Positions 2,191 through 28,941 of a DNA stretch of 32,000 nt are shown in pieces; the stretch's first letter is position 1; each line of letters starts with the position of its first letter. The translations under genes were made by a program, and so were the position numbers. The notes beneath the pieces were generated by a model. It was not told where the DNA came from and searched no databases. It saw only the letters and a list, made by a program, of their open reading frames with translations. Origin of the DNA: Candidatus Annandia pinicola. GTDB lineage: Bacteria; Pseudomonadota; Gammaproteobacteria; Enterobacterales; Enterobacteriaceae_A. The stretch is taken from contig NZ_CP045876.1 in NCBI RefSeq assembly GCF_020541245.1, positions 90,001 through 122,000 of the forward strand, read 5' to 3'.

Positions 2191-2196
2191 AAAAAA

Positions 2197-2847
2197 TTAC
2201 CATTTAATAGGTTTAATATTATTATTAACTAAAAAAATATTTGATTTAACAAAATGTTTACATCCAAAAAATCCATAATTAGCTGATAATGGTGAAGGAT
2301 GTGAAGAAATTAATATTAAATGTTTTTTTGAGTTTATTAAATTTATTTTTTTCTTTGCATGCTCCCCCCATAAAAAAAAAACTACATTTTTTTTATATAT
2401 ATTTATTAATTTTATAACTTTATCAGTAAATATTTCCCAACCTATATTTTTATGAGAAAATTTTTTGTTTTTTTCTACAGTTAAAATAGTATTTAATAAT
2501 AATACACCTTGTTTAGCCCAATTAATTAAACAACCATTTTTAGGAATATTAAATTCTTTAAAATTTGATTTAATTTCTATATATATATTTTTTAATGAAG
2601 GAGTAATATTAATATTATTAGATAAAGAAAAAGCTAATCCATCTGCTTGGTTATATTTTATATATGGATCTTGCCCTAAAATTACTATTTTAATTTTATT
2701 AAAATTAGTAAATTTAAAAGCATTAAATATATTTTTTTGTAAAGGATAAATAATTTTTCCATTATAACGTTCTTTATATATAAAATTTATTATTTTATTA
2801 AAATATTTTTTTTTTTTTTCTTTTTTAAAAATTTTTTGTCATTGCAT
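2197..2847 (-). CDS. ung: uracil-DNA glycosylase (family 1), interrupted by an in-frame TGA at codon 3 (2839-2841). Absent from the ORF track because no ATG/GTG/TTG follows that TGA
   Basis: Manual minus-strand translation gives M Q [TGA] QKIFKKEKKKKYFNKIINFIYKERYNGKIIYPLQKNIFNAFKFTNFNKIKIVILGQDPY...LAFS...NWAKQGVLLLNTILTV...GWE.FTD...VVFFLWGEHA...HLILISSHPSPLSANYGFFGCKHF...IKW then TAA. It is collinear with E. coli Ung, including the GQDPY and HPSPLS motifs. The listed + ORF 2465..2749 is its antisense shadow. Confidence 0.85.
2806..2819 (-). repeat. A14 (T14 on + strand) inside ung, in-frame (E KKKK)
   Basis: Direct count: g + 14 A on the coding strand, read as gaa aaa aaa aaa aaa. Confidence 0.9.
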
Positions 2848-2961
2848 TTTTTTAATAATCCTAGTTTATATTAATATATAATTATTAAATTTTAAATTAA
2901 TTTAATAATTATTTATTATATATCTATATATATATAATAAAAATATTTTTTTTATAATTAT

Positions 2962-4752: not shown

Positions 4753-4960
4753 AAAATTTTATTTTTTTTATAATTATTATATTATCTAAAATTATATTAA
4801 TTTATTAAATTAATATAAATTAATTTATTATAAACACAACGTTAAATTATTAAAAAAAATAGTTATAAATTTTTTTATATTATTTTACTTTAAAAAATGT
4901 AATATAAGAATAACATTTTTATTAAAAATATTTTATTTTTTTATTTATACTATAAGATCT

Positions 4961-6525: not shown

Positions 6526-6909
6526 ATGACTATTTTAGGATTAGGTATTGATATAGTATGGATGTTACGCATAAAAAATATATGTATTAAAAAAAGAAAT
6601 AAATTAGCTAAAAAAATATTAAATAAAAATGAATTTTATAATTACATAAATAATTATAATAAATCATATCGTTTTTTATCTAAAGTTTTTTCTATAAAAG
6701 AAGCTGCTTCTAAATCATTAGGTATTGGTATGAGGAATGGATTAAATTTTCATAATTTTGAAGTATATAATAATAAAATTGGAAAACCAAAAATAAAATT
6801 TTTAAAATATGCATACTATTTAAAAAAAAAAAAAAAAATAAATAATATTCATACTACTTTAACATATGAAAATGATTATGTATGTTCTGTAGTAATATTA
6901 GAATCCTAA
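6526..6909 (+). CDS. acpS: holo-[acyl-carrier-protein] synthase
   Basis: 127 aa. M.ILGLG.DIV, F..KEAA.K..G.G.RNGL.F..FEV.N...GKP and the C-terminal ..VVILES match E. coli AcpS end to end. Confidence 0.9.
   Translation: MTILGLGIDIVWMLRIKNICIKKRNKLAKKILNKNEFYNYINNYNKSYRFLSKVFSIKEAASKSLGIGMRNGLNFHNFEVYNNKIGKPKIKFLKYAYYLKKKKKINNIHTTLTYENDYVCSVVILES
6822..6838 (+). repeat. A17 homopolymer inside acpS, in-frame (L KKKKK I)
   Basis: Direct count: tta aaa aaa aaa aaa aaa ata. Confidence 0.95.
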
Positions 6910-6935: not shown

Positions 6936-7382
6936 ATGATTAAAAAAAAACATAATTATTGGATGAAATATGCAATTTTATTAGCAAAAAGGGCTTTAAA
7001 AAAAAACGAAGTTCCTATAGGTGCAATATTAATACAAAACAATATTATAATTGGTAAGGGTTATAATTGTACAATATCATCTAAAGATCCTACATCTCAT
7101 GCTGAAATTATTGCTATTAGAAAAGGTAGTAAATATTTAAATAATTATAGATTACAAAATTCTATTTTATATTGAACTTTAGAACCATGTATTATGTGTA
7201 CTGGAGTAATATTAAATAGTAGAATTAATAAAGTTGTTTTTGGAGCTAAAAATAAAAATTATATGAATTTTACAAATTTACTAAACAAATTAAAAATAAA
7301 AAATTCTATTAATATAGTAGATGATATATTATCTAAAGAATGTTCTAAATTAATAAATGATTTTTTTTTATCAAAAAGATAA
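6936..7382 (+). CDS. tadA: tRNA-specific adenosine deaminase TadA, with an in-frame TGA at 7173-7175 between the HAE and PCxxC zinc-ligand motifs
   Basis: ORFs 6936..7175 and 7194..7382 are in the same frame (258 nt apart). Joined they read ..DPTSHAEIIAIRKG...YRLQNSILY[TGA]TLEPCIMCTGVILNSRINKVVFGAK...SKECSKLINDFF. This is collinear with E. coli TadA (HAE ... LYVTLEPCVMCAGA ... VVFGA ... LLSDFF). Confidence 0.85.
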
Positions 7383-7426: not shown

Positions 7427-8711
7427 ATGATAAATTATAATAATATATTTAAATATGATAAAAAAATATGGAAAATATTAAAAAATGAAATTAAAAGACA
7501 AGAAGAAAATATAGAATTAATAGCTTCTGAAAATTATATTACAAAATATGTTATGGAAATACAAGGTTCACAGTTAACTAATAAATATGCAGAAGGCTAT
7601 CCCAGGAAAAAGATATTATGCAGGATGTAAATATATAGATAAAATAGAAGAATTAGCAATATATCGTGCAAAAAAAATATTTAAAGCTGATTATGTTAAT
7701 GTACAACCACATTCAGGATCTCAAGCAAATTTTGCTGTATATAATGCTTTATTAAATCCAGGTGATACCATTTTAAGTATTAAACTAGATCATGGTGGTC
7801 ATTTAACTCATGGATCATTAGTAAATTTTTCAGGAAAATTATATAATTTTATTCATTATGAATTAAATAATAATAATAGTATTGATTATATAAATATTCT
7901 AAAATTATCTTTAAAATATAAACCTAAAATGATAATAAGTGGTTTTTCTTCATATTCAGGATTATGTAATTGGAAAAAAATGCGTATTATTGCTGATTAT
8001 ATTAATGCTTATTTATTTGTAGACATATCTCATATTGCAGGTTTAATAGTATCAGGATTGTACCCCAATCCTATAAATTATGCACATGTTATAACTTCTA
8101 CTACTCATAAAACTTTATCAGGTCCAAGAGGTGGTATAATATTATCTAAAGGAAATAAATTATCATTTTATAAAAAATTGAATAAGTCTGTTTTTCCAGG
8201 AACTCAAGGTGGACCATTAATGCATATAATAGCTTCAAAAGCTATGTCTTTTAAAGAAGCTATGAGTTTAAAATTTATTGAATATCAAATACAAACTATA
8301 ATAAATTCTAAATTAATGTCAAAAATATTTATATCTTTAGGATATAAAATAATATCTAATGTAACTGAAAATCATTTATTTTTATTAGATTTAAGAAAAA
8401 ATAATATTACAGGTAATAAAATAGAAATAAAACTAGAATATGCAAACATTATTGTAAATAAAAATATTATCCCTAATGAAAAAAAAAAACATCATATAAC
8501 TTCTGGAATTAGAATCGGAACACCTGCTATTACTAAAAGAGGGTTTAAAGAAAAAGAAATTAGTATATTAACATTATGGATTCATGATATAATACAAAAT
8601 ATTAATAATTTTGATAAAATTATTAATATTAAAAAAAAAGTAATTAATATTTGTAAAAAATTTCCAGTATATAATTATAATAAAAAAAAACAAAATTTAA
8701 TAATTAAATAA
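7427..8711 (+). CDS. glyA: serine hydroxymethyltransferase, carrying a 1-nt insertion (+1 frame change) at about 7601-7604
   Basis: ORF 7427..7630 ends ..[13 protein letters not shown] then goes out of frame. ORF 7587..8711 reads ..[46 protein letters not shown]... Joined at tat c|cca gga they reproduce the E. coli sequence [16 protein letters not shown]. Total length is 1285 nt, which is 3n+1. Confidence 0.9.
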
Positions 8712-24787: not shown

Positions 24788-25789
24788 TTATTTTAATAAA
24801 ATAGTTAAAATATACTCTATCATATTCCATATATTGTTATAAAAAACATTATAAAAATAAAATTCTATTTTATATAATAATTTTATTATTATGTAAAATT
24901 TATTAATATTTAAATTTTTTATAATTTTAATTAATAATAAACTTTCTAAATATTCAATATTATGTTTTTTTAAAATTTCATATACTAAATTAATATTATT
25001 TTTTTTTATAAAAATTTTAATTAAAATTATTATATAATATTCTAATTCTTTTACTATAACTATAATATTATAATTTTTTATTTTTAATTGATATAAAATA
25101 TTTATAGAAATATTTAAATCTTTTAAAATTAAAGATTTAATAAAACATTTGTGAGTAAATATGTTCATGTTTTCTAAAATATTTTTAATATCTTTAATTT
25201 TAATATATTTTTTTTTATATAATATATATATATAATCTAATATTTTTATTAAAATTGAAATATTATTTTTATAAAAATAATTAATAAATTTTATTGATGA
25301 TAAAGATAAATTAATATTTTTAATTTTAATATAATAATAAATAAAATTATCTTTTGTATAATTTTTTGTTATATCTTCTATAATAATACCAATTGATTTT
25401 ATTTTATTATAAAAATAGTTTATTTTTATTAAATTATAATTTTTATTATAAATTAAAACTATTATATTATTTAAACTTGATAAATTTATTATTTTATCAA
25501 TTTTATTAAATAAAATATTATTTGATATATTTATTTTTAATTTAATTATAAAAATTTTTTTTTTCTCTAAAATATTTATTTGTTGTAATAAATTTAATAT
25601 TAAAATAAAATCATCTTTTTTTTTAATTGAAAAATTATAAACATTATAAATATCTTTTTTTTTTAAAATATTTATTATTTGATTTTTAATTTTTAGTTTT
25701 AAAATTTCATTTTTTTCTAAAATTAAATATATTGGAAATATATTTTTTTTTTTATAAAATTTAATAAAATTAGTTTTAATGTTATAAAT
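24788..25789 (-). CDS. holA: DNA polymerase III delta subunit. 5' end uncertain: the frame is open to 25804 but has no ATG/GTG/TTG before the internal ATG at 25168. ATT at 25789-25787 is proposed by alignment
   Basis: Manual translation upstream of the listed 126-aa ORF stays open for 212 more codons (..IYNIKTNFIKFYKKKNIFPIYLILEKNEILKLKIKN...). The length (about 333 aa), the position between leuS and lipB, and the segments YL(I/L)L..(N/D)..L and (N/H)(I/F)(F/T)..(H).....L......(L/I).IL.QL resemble E. coli HolA (343 aa). The sequence is very divergent. Confidence 0.65.
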   Translation of the reverse strand: MYNIKTNFIKFYKKKNIFPIYLILEKNEILKLKIKNQIINILKKKDIYNVYNFSIKKKDDFILILNLLQQINILEKKKIFIIKLKINISNNILFNKIDKIINLSSLNNIIVLIYNKNYNLIKINYFYNKIKSIGIIIEDITKNYTKDNFIYYYIKIKNINLSLSSIKFINYFYKNNISILIKILDYIYILYKKKYIKIKDIKNILENMNIFTHKCFIKSLILKDLNISINILYQLKIKNYNIIVIVKELEYYIIILIKIFIKKNNINLVYEILKKHNIEYLESLLLIKIIKNLNINKFYIIIKLLYKIEFYFYNVFYNNIWNMIEYILTILLK

Positions 25790-25819
25790 TCCTATTTTTT
25801 TAAATTATATTAATATTTA

Positions 25820-28482: not shown

Positions 28483-28941
28483 TTATAAAAAATAAGGATT
28501 TTTATATCCCATTGATTTCATAATACTTGTTTCTATTTTAATCATAGAAATTAAATCTTTATATAATTTATGTTTATATCCTATTAAATGTAAAATTCCA
28601 TGCATAATATTATGTAAAAAAAGCGTTTCAAATTTTATTTTATATAATTTTGATTCTTTTATAATATTTTTATAACATATAACTATTTCTCCTATTATTT
28701 TAATATTTGTATTTGGTATATTTATATCATTAAATGTAATAATATTAGTAACTTTATTTTTATTAAAATATAATTTATTTAATTCTATTATTTTTTTTTT
28801 ATCAACAATAACAATATTTATTTCTTTATTAATTTTTTTATATTTTGTTATAGATATTAATAAATATTGTAATTTAGATAAAGAAATTATTTTTCTTTTA
28901 TATTTACACATTAATTTTAAATTACAAATAATTTTTTTCAT
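28483..28941 (-). CDS. ybeY: endoribonuclease YbeY (16S rRNA 3' maturation)
   Basis: 152 aa. Zinc-binding H.(I/M)HG.LHL.GY.H motif (HNIMHGILHLIGYKH), GEIVIC. Sits between leuS and miaB as in the E. coli ybeZYX region. Confidence 0.88.
   Translation of the reverse strand: MKKIICNLKLMCKYKRKIISLSKLQYLLISITKYKKINKEINIVIVDKKKIIELNKLYFNKNKVTNIITFNDINIPNTNIKIIGEIVICYKNIIKESKLYKIKFETLFLHNIMHGILHLIGYKHKLYKDLISMIKIETSIMKSMGYKNPYFL

Follow-up and report, generated by a model that had tools for sequence, protein, structure and literature searches.

What does an in-frame TGA mean when it stands exactly at a conserved tryptophan (Trp) codon of an otherwise intact gene? This question was raised by ung, the gene of a family-1 uracil-DNA glycosylase, in a stretch of 32,000 nucleotides from Candidatus Annandia pinicola (contig NZ_CP045876.1, positions 90,001 to 122,000 of the forward strand). 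The whole stretch is called the window here, and positions are counted from its first letter. A. pinicola is an obligate symbiont of Pineus adelgids with a genome of about 0.35 Mb and 17-18% G+C, and the window has about 17% G+C. Our best reading is that A. pinicola has kept the standard code, in which UGA is a leaky stop, or stands at most at the very first step toward UGA = Trp. The evidence came from ung, from a second gene with an in-frame TGA (tadA, for tRNA adenosine-34 deaminase), and from a diverged strain, called strain 2, that shares both codons. The features of ung were as follows.

2196..2847, minus strand: ung (family-1 uracil-DNA glycosylase), with 216 sense codons from the ATG at 2847..2845 and then TAA
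2839..2841, minus strand: in-frame TGA, codon 3 of ung, in the conserved N-terminal Trp column
2836..2844, minus strand: CAA TGA CAA, with the same Gln codon on either side of the stop and C as the next base (UGA-C), identical in strain 2
2830..2832, minus strand: ATT, codon 6 of ung and start codon of the RefSeq model, kept in strain 2
2806..2819, minus strand: run of 14 A (A14 tract), codons 10-14, the longest A run and homopolymer of the gene
2859..2862, minus strand: AGGA, Shine-Dalgarno-like, 11 nt upstream of the ung ATG, kept in strain 2
2662..2676, minus strand: GQDPY catalytic motif of Ung, residues 58-62, intact
2284..2301, minus strand: HPSPLS motif of Ung (leucine-intercalation loop), residues 183-188, intact

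The gene began with the codons ATG CAA TGA CAA AAA ATT TTT AAA AAA GAA AAA AAA AAA AAA TAT TTT. Past the TGA, 213 sense codons were open up to the TAA at 2198..2196, and no in-frame ATG, GTG or TTG occurred beyond codon 1. The remaining Trp codons of ung (110, 137, 160 and 216) were TGG in all four cases. With Trp placed at codon 3, the product scored 304.7 bits against the NCBIfam Ung equivalog NF003589 (cut-off 223) and 260 bits against TIGR00628 (cut-off 185.75). The ung product, above the curated cut-offs and with GQDPY and HPSPLS present, is a family-1 uracil-DNA glycosylase. In a MAFFT alignment, the TGA column held W in 116 of 120 homologues. The four exceptions included RefSeq's own truncated model of this gene and the Buchnera protein P0063, which was an annotation artefact of a poly(A) frameshift, with DNA that does encode Trp. 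P0063 was considered as a natural Trp-less Ung and was rejected on the same grounds, the Trp being encoded upstream of the frameshift. The RefSeq protein WP_226799324 (Ca. Annandia pinicola) was 100% identical to the window Ung from codon 7 onward and began with MFKKEKKKK. The model thus takes the ATT at codon 6 as its start and reads it as Met. In the case of the sister species A. adelgestsuga, Ung was MKWIFFLKNENKKKYF, which starts with MKW and has Trp at residue 3. The presence of Trp at this site in A. adelgestsuga meant that TGG was ancestral and that TGA was derived in A. pinicola. Judged by these alignments, the ung site is no chance match: one G has changed to A in a Trp codon that is nearly invariant. 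The initial annotation had described the locus as a TGA at 2839-2841 within the start ATG CAA TGA CAA, followed by about 213 open codons with both motifs intact, and had placed the TGA at the conserved Trp position, 12 residues from the conserved YF. It had also listed the A14 tract, the four TGG codons and the lack of a downstream in-frame ATG, GTG or TTG. This description was accurate in every respect, and the coordinates, the spacing and the W column agreed with it.

The age of the TGA was judged from strain 2. This strain is A. pinicola-like and distinct, and it was represented by Logan contigs from runs including SRR33594997 and SRR33594955. Its Ung was found as a 216-residue Logan-predicted member of the 90% cluster of the RefSeq protein, and contigs L082-L091, from three runs, were reached by cluster look-ups of other window proteins. 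The strain-2 contigs covered most of the window and about 16 kb beyond it. Strain 2 was about 6% diverged from the window, with a pooled synonymous divergence (dS) of 0.18. Its Ung (contig L081, SRR33594997) showed 16 amino-acid differences from the window Ung. The strain-2 gene read ATG CAA TGA CAA GAA ATT, with the TGA at L081 61..63. The other four Trp codons were TGG, the A14 run was of unchanged length, and the 651-nt ung alignment between the strains was free of indels, A14 tract included. Since the TGA was present in independent read sets of a diverged strain, a base-call error was ruled out.

Selection was measured as omega (the ratio of nonsynonymous to synonymous change) by the Nei-Gojobori method, and the other 25 genes, pooled, gave a background of 0.25. 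Downstream of the TGA, ung had an omega of 0.30 between the strains (p = 7e-4), a value which, coming from one strain pair, short genes, an approximate method and an extreme composition, is best read relative to the other genes. Under neutrality, about 19 new stops between the strains were expected in ung from the substitution spectrum at four-fold sites, and none was seen (P = 5.5e-9). An omega near 1 and the piling up of stops and indels, which mark a pseudogene, were found in neither ung nor tadA. The fate of acpS was different. It was intact in the window (6526..6909, plus strand), and in strain 2 its place was occupied by non-coding, AT-rich DNA of about 400 nt (L088 1797..2200), where no match was found. 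This is a strain-specific gene loss. It showed what a dead gene looks like here, as acpS was already unrecognisable in strain 2. The ung TGA is not young, and the gene is not a pseudogene. A very young TGG-to-TGA nonsense mutation, one of the two options first offered for this locus, was refuted by the same TGA in a diverged strain, the omega of 0.30 and the lack of stops. The signs that would have spoken for a plain recent lesion or a base-call error, namely a TGG or a degraded ung in an orthologous strain, were likewise contradicted, as the independently sequenced strain 2 carried the TGA in an intact and selected gene.

The second case was found in a code-4 scan of all long frames of the window, in which tadA was the only other real gene with an in-frame TGA.

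6936..7382, plus strand: tadA (tRNA adenosine-34 deaminase), 148 codons, with an in-frame TGA
7173..7175, plus strand: in-frame TGA, codon 80 of tadA, between HAE (7098..7106) and PCIMC (7185..7199)

The context of this TGA was ...NSILY*TLEPCIMCTG..., with 68 open codons past it, and the window TadA was 71% identical to that of A. adelgestsuga. In strain 2, the TGA was kept in two read sets (L088 and L089), which read ...LY TGA ACT TTA GAA CCA TGT..., and the downstream frame and its stop were the same. Omega was 0.22 upstream of the TGA and 0.21 downstream (p = 0.006). Past the TGA, 3.05 new stops were expected if the sequence were neutral, and 0 were seen (P = 0.047). Because the HAE zinc ligand precedes the TGA and the PCxxC ligand follows it, a restart downstream cannot yield a deaminase with both motifs. 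The selection seen after the TGA, together with the lack of a useful restart, argued that ribosomes pass this UGA. In 120 homologues, the TGA column held T in 80, V in 36, I in 3 and S in 1 (A. adelgestsuga), and W never. A TGA in a T/V/I/S column fits a tolerated leaky stop better than reassignment to Trp.

Does UGA then simply mean Trp throughout this genome? As its other option, the initial annotation had offered that UGA is translated, most simply as Trp as in genetic code 4. In 30 genes of the window, 2 in-frame TGAs stood against about 75 TGG codons, and no further in-frame TGA was found in about 15 extra strain-2 genes. Only one of the two in-frame TGAs was in a Trp column (ung yes, tadA no). 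Aligned Trp codons were TGG in both strains in 67 of 67 cases, and TGG/TGA swaps numbered 0. The two-fold A/G families (Lys, Glu, Gln, Leu-TTR and Arg-AGR) served as a control and gave 2187 A/A, 132 differing and 9 G/G codon pairs. Codons with a final G made up about 3% of these families, and of the 65 such codons in the window, 56 (86%) had A as the last base in strain 2. Strict retention of TGG against such a strong G-to-A bias meant that TGG is under strong selection and that UGA is far from equivalent to it. Fixed code 4 (UGA = Trp) is refuted for A. pinicola. The part of the proposal that survived was decoding at a low level, for which tadA provided a second case. The point that the initial annotation had itself raised against code 4, that TGG is the usual Trp codon, held quantitatively, with all 67 codons kept as against about 3% G-ending codons in the control families. 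It had also suggested that in-frame TGAs be tabulated. This was done on the window and the strain-2 loci, and it brought out the second TGA, which did not align with a Trp column.

On balance, we lean toward the explanation that old nonsense alleles in ung and tadA are tolerated through low-level, leaky read-through of UGA. In a genome where mutation pushes strongly toward AT and selection is weak, Trp codon 3 of ung would have become TGA by a G-to-A change, which drift would then have fixed. A second nonsense change would have struck codon 80 of tadA, and both changes would predate the split of the two sampled strains. Both genes evolve like ordinary protein-coding genes, which suggested that a useful amount of full-length protein is still made. 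Reading of UGA at a low level by a near-cognate tRNA would be the most economical mechanism for both genes. In bacteria, the near-cognate reader of UGA is chiefly tRNA-Trp. In A. pinicola, the reading tRNA would most likely be tRNA-Trp with the anticodon CCA, tRNA-Trp(CCA), and it would restore the native Trp in Ung. UGA-C, as in ung, and UGA-A, as in tadA, are weak termination contexts in E. coli. Ung and TadA would both be required in small amounts only. Two features of a leaky or transitional UGA state were observed. A few otherwise intact conserved genes (ung and tadA) carried an in-frame UGA in an otherwise standard code, the UGA sites were common to diverged strains, and the genes were under purifying selection (omega 0.30 and 0.21 vs 0.25 for the background).

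Several points weigh against this explanation. Read-through of both UGAs is what we infer from the sequences, and the same applies to the amino acid inserted and to anything said here of release factor 2 (RF2). The omega values rest on a single strain pair and on short genes, and they were estimated approximately in a genome whose composition is extreme. In the case of tadA, W was never found in the TGA column, and Trp there would be a radical change beside a zinc ligand, so the enzyme may function badly or tadA may be in the course of being lost. The strain-2 TadA also has an unusual Tyr before HAE. The need for TadA (inosine-34) may be small, and an unmodified A34 could read CGT. The Arg codons of the window were AGA 156, CGT 41, CGA 2, AGG 2, CGC 0 and CGG 0, which made CGT 41 of the 43 CGN codons, and CGT codons were kept between the strains in 36 of 41 cases. 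In addition, ung has two routes that need no decoding of UGA, through the conserved ATT at codon 6 or through a hop between the CAA codons, and non-canonical initiation seems real in this genome, as in holA.

These two routes make up the alternative in which Ung is produced without decoding UGA. Ribosomes would stop after Met-Gln and resume six nucleotides further along, by re-initiation at the ATT, or the peptidyl-tRNA-Gln would hop from CAA to CAA, two codons that may serve for take-off and landing in a +6 hop. A Trp-less Ung would then work, and tadA would be a separate matter. We regard this as unlikely, with enough in its favour to be taken seriously. RefSeq starts WP_226799324 at the ATT, and this codon is conserved in strain 2. 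The order CAA TGA CAA was present in both strains, and neither Gln was found at these positions in the dozen relatives displayed. As holA apparently starts non-canonically in both strains, non-AUG initiation is plausible, and the purifying selection on ung fits this alternative equally well as read-through. However, it discards a residue kept in 116 of 120 homologues, and the one natural case that seemed to support it, Buchnera P0063, is an artefact of annotation. A Shine-Dalgarno-like element was seen only for the ATG, 26 nt away from the ATT; such a motif was present at -6 to -16 in about 11 of 27 window genes. Identical codons would flank a stop by chance in about 5% of cases, by a rough estimate, and they were noticed post hoc. 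The selection on tadA past its TGA would also be left unexplained, and it is here that leaky read-through accounts for more. Another possibility is that A. pinicola has lost or crippled RF2, so that UGA is unassigned or ambiguous and is read slowly by tRNA-Trp(CCA), as the earliest stage of a reassignment of the Stammera type. TGA ended none of about 45 genes in the two strains, all of which ended with TAA except htpG (TAG), and two in-frame TGAs persist under selection. The related Stammera, which in most lineages uses code 4 with tRNA-Trp(CCA) and mostly lacks prfB, the gene of RF2, shows that this tRNA can carry full reassignment, and its basal lineage still keeps code 11 and prfB. However, TGA also ended only 3 of 45 open reading frames in the four all-TGG Stammera loci, read here as code 11, and 0 of 14 in Westeberhardia, so the zero count is weak evidence about RF2. 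Conservation of all 67 TGG codons against the very strong G-to-A bias meant that UGA is heavily disfavoured, and one of the two TGAs lies outside a Trp position. We judge a loss or crippling of RF2 improbable. An RF2 (prfB) homologue was not found in the window or in the extra strain-2 sequence of about 16 kb by tblastn with an RF2 fragment as the query. In the window and the extra loci, tRNA scans found Arg-TCT, Met-CAT, Gln-TTG and Leu-TAG and no tRNA-Trp gene. Annandia prfB, trnW or UGA were not mentioned in the Annandia genome papers or in the accessible supplements of the prfB, Codetta, gTranslate and 4-bp-stem papers.

It is very improbable that ung and tadA are simply pseudogenes in which decay has yet to show, or that the TGAs are sequencing errors. 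GenBank protein accessions jump from UDG80324 (acpS) to UDG80325 (iscS), with none for tadA or glyA between them, and a tadA fragment was absent from the protein collection. GenBank thus seems to treat tadA and glyA as pseudogenes, which is in line with this view for tadA. However, the same TGAs were present in independent read sets of a diverged strain, omega was 0.2-0.3 as in functional genes, and in ung 19 stops were expected and 0 seen, with the A14 tract unchanged in length. A truly lost gene, acpS in strain 2, was already unrecognisable. In the case of ung, the pseudogene reading is effectively refuted. Two further mechanisms were considered and rejected. For selenocysteine insertion or programmed read-through stimulated by structure, no SECIS or other RNA element was found, and the columns were Trp and T/V/I/S rather than Cys or selenocysteine. 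No downstream RNA structure beyond shuffled controls was detected at the TGA of ung or tadA (z = +0.6 and -0.25), and there was no Rfam match besides tRNAs. Rescue of ung by poly(A) slippage was rejected because the frame that begins at the alternative ATG in CA-ATG-A already ends, with a TAA, ahead of the A14 tract.

The favoured explanation, leaky UGA, was compared with known systems. In Providencia siddallii, the strains PSOF and PSLP have nine otherwise intact genes apiece with an in-frame UGA, some of them common to the strains, and both retain prfB and trnW(CCA). These UGAs were taken to be read through and to mark the beginning of a code change (Genome Biol Evol 2023, PMC10540940). Annandia resembles these leech symbionts in being an AT-rich, reduced gammaproteobacterial symbiont annotated with the standard code, with a handful of otherwise intact genes that carry UGA, some shared between strains. 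However, the UGAs of Providencia were reported at Trp positions, whereas one of the two in Annandia stands at T/V/I/S. The presence of prfB and trnW(CCA) was shown in Providencia, whereas Annandia is known here from the window and about 16 kb beyond it. Providencia also has a sister lineage with widespread UGA = Trp (PSAC), and no such lineage is known for Annandia.

The second system was Stammera, and here the comparison was made on ung itself. Eight Stammera capleta ung loci were compared (L004, L009, L010 and L057 against L034, L051, L068 and L071): in four genomes every Trp of ung was TGG, and in the other four every Trp was TGA. The all-TGG loci were equally compact under either code, and reading the all-TGA loci with code 4 raised their coding coverage from about 0.7 to about 0.93. 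This split matches the published code-11 and code-4 lineages. Annandia and Stammera capleta were placed in the same clade by Dial et al. and are similar in G+C and genome size, and four Stammera ung genes have TGA at this very Trp. However, code-4 Stammera has TGA for all Trp codons of ung, and UGA is present in 62% of its genes. In the window from Annandia, TGA stands at 2 of about 77 such positions and TGG is strictly conserved, and the gene order differs.

Two cases of translational or transcriptional infidelity were also relevant. Tamas and colleagues reportedly found in 2008 that frameshifts in poly(A) tracts are rescued by transcriptional slippage in Buchnera and Blochmannia. The likeness is that apparently broken, selected genes are kept working by infidelity of gene expression in tiny symbiont genomes. 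However, the defect in Annandia is a stop, and the A14 tract is in frame and downstream of it, which meant that slippage cannot rescue the gene. Stop-codon hopping between identical codons was reportedly described in E. coli by Weiss and colleagues in 1987. The ung stop of Annandia, flanked by identical codons in CAA UGA CAA, would likewise allow a +6 hop. In contrast, tadA (TAT TGA ACT) has no matching in-frame landing codon, and a hop is inapplicable there. A separate observation was made on ung of Buchnera aphidicola (GCA_948107705.1; L092 1477..1530). Only a frameshift within a poly(A) tract makes the annotated Ung of 213 residues start past the Trp, and MNIILTWKDVLSQEKKK is encoded in the frame upstream. 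This frameshift is in a Lys-rich stretch homologous to the Annandia A14 tract, which is a classic situation for poly(A) slippage.

A. pinicola looks like a new, undescribed case of selected in-frame UGAs of the Providencia type. A change from stop to sense is usually inferred from end states, and genomes with few selected in-frame UGAs are rare, Providencia siddallii being the described example. A. pinicola would be a second, independent case, placed beside the Stammera clade, which holds both codes. This placement makes the order of leaky read-through, RF2 loss and tRNA change testable by comparison. A bolder proposal, which we put forward tentatively and which is possible rather than probable, is that A. 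pinicola has been caught in nature at the very first step of a change from stop to Trp. RF2 would be lost or weakened, UGA would be decoded slowly by ordinary tRNA-Trp(CCA) in a few low-demand genes, and the predisposition would be shared with the Stammera clade. If this were true, code change could be studied along a graded series made up of Annandia, basal Stammera and derived Stammera. Current annotations, as pseudogenes or with an ATT start for ung, may understate the repair and tRNA-editing capacity of the symbiont. Pseudogene counts in such genomes merit re-examination for shared, selected in-frame UGAs.

The assignment of the window was supported by its other proteins, ten of which were exact A. 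pinicola records. Annandia, Purcelliella and Stammera are in one clade, sister to Buchnera (Dial et al. 2021, PMC8857208), and a 2026 preprint described the Annandia genome of Pineus strobi as perfectly syntenic with that of P. similis. In the species-level genome collection, in which Annandia was not included, the closest ung loci were those of Candidatus Stammera capleta, with 60-65% identity. The gene order nadK, grpE, ung, lepA, rnc, era, acpS, tadA, glyA was Riesia-like and unlike that of Stammera.

Beside tadA, glyA (7427..8711, plus strand) needed a +1 frameshift in the window around 7601..7607. The window read TAT CCC A GGA AAA AGA, as against TAT CCT GGA AAA AGA in strain 2, where glyA was intact with 421 aa (L089 617..1882). 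The extra base was specific to the window genome; it may have come from misassembly or from a recent lesion, or it may belong to a +1 slip site at CCC-AGG. A shared recoding site was rejected, as the strain-2 gene was intact. Among the genes compared between the strains, ybeY (28483..28941, minus strand) was the only one without a signal of purifying selection, with an omega of 0.94 (sd 4.5, nd 20.5).

The holA-like frame (24788..25804, minus strand) had 338 sense codons open in DNA of about 10% G+C. No ATG, GTG or TTG occurred over its first 212 codons in either strain, and omega in that stretch was 0.44. At its 5' end, AGGA stood immediately before ATT/ATA codons, and a non-canonical start of holA is likely. 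In A. adelgestsuga, holA was called a pseudogene (PMC6022629). The order lepA-rnc-era was kept except that lepB was missing between lepA and rnc, where a 208-nt spacer was present at 4753..4960. In the window, rnc and hisS begin with TTG.

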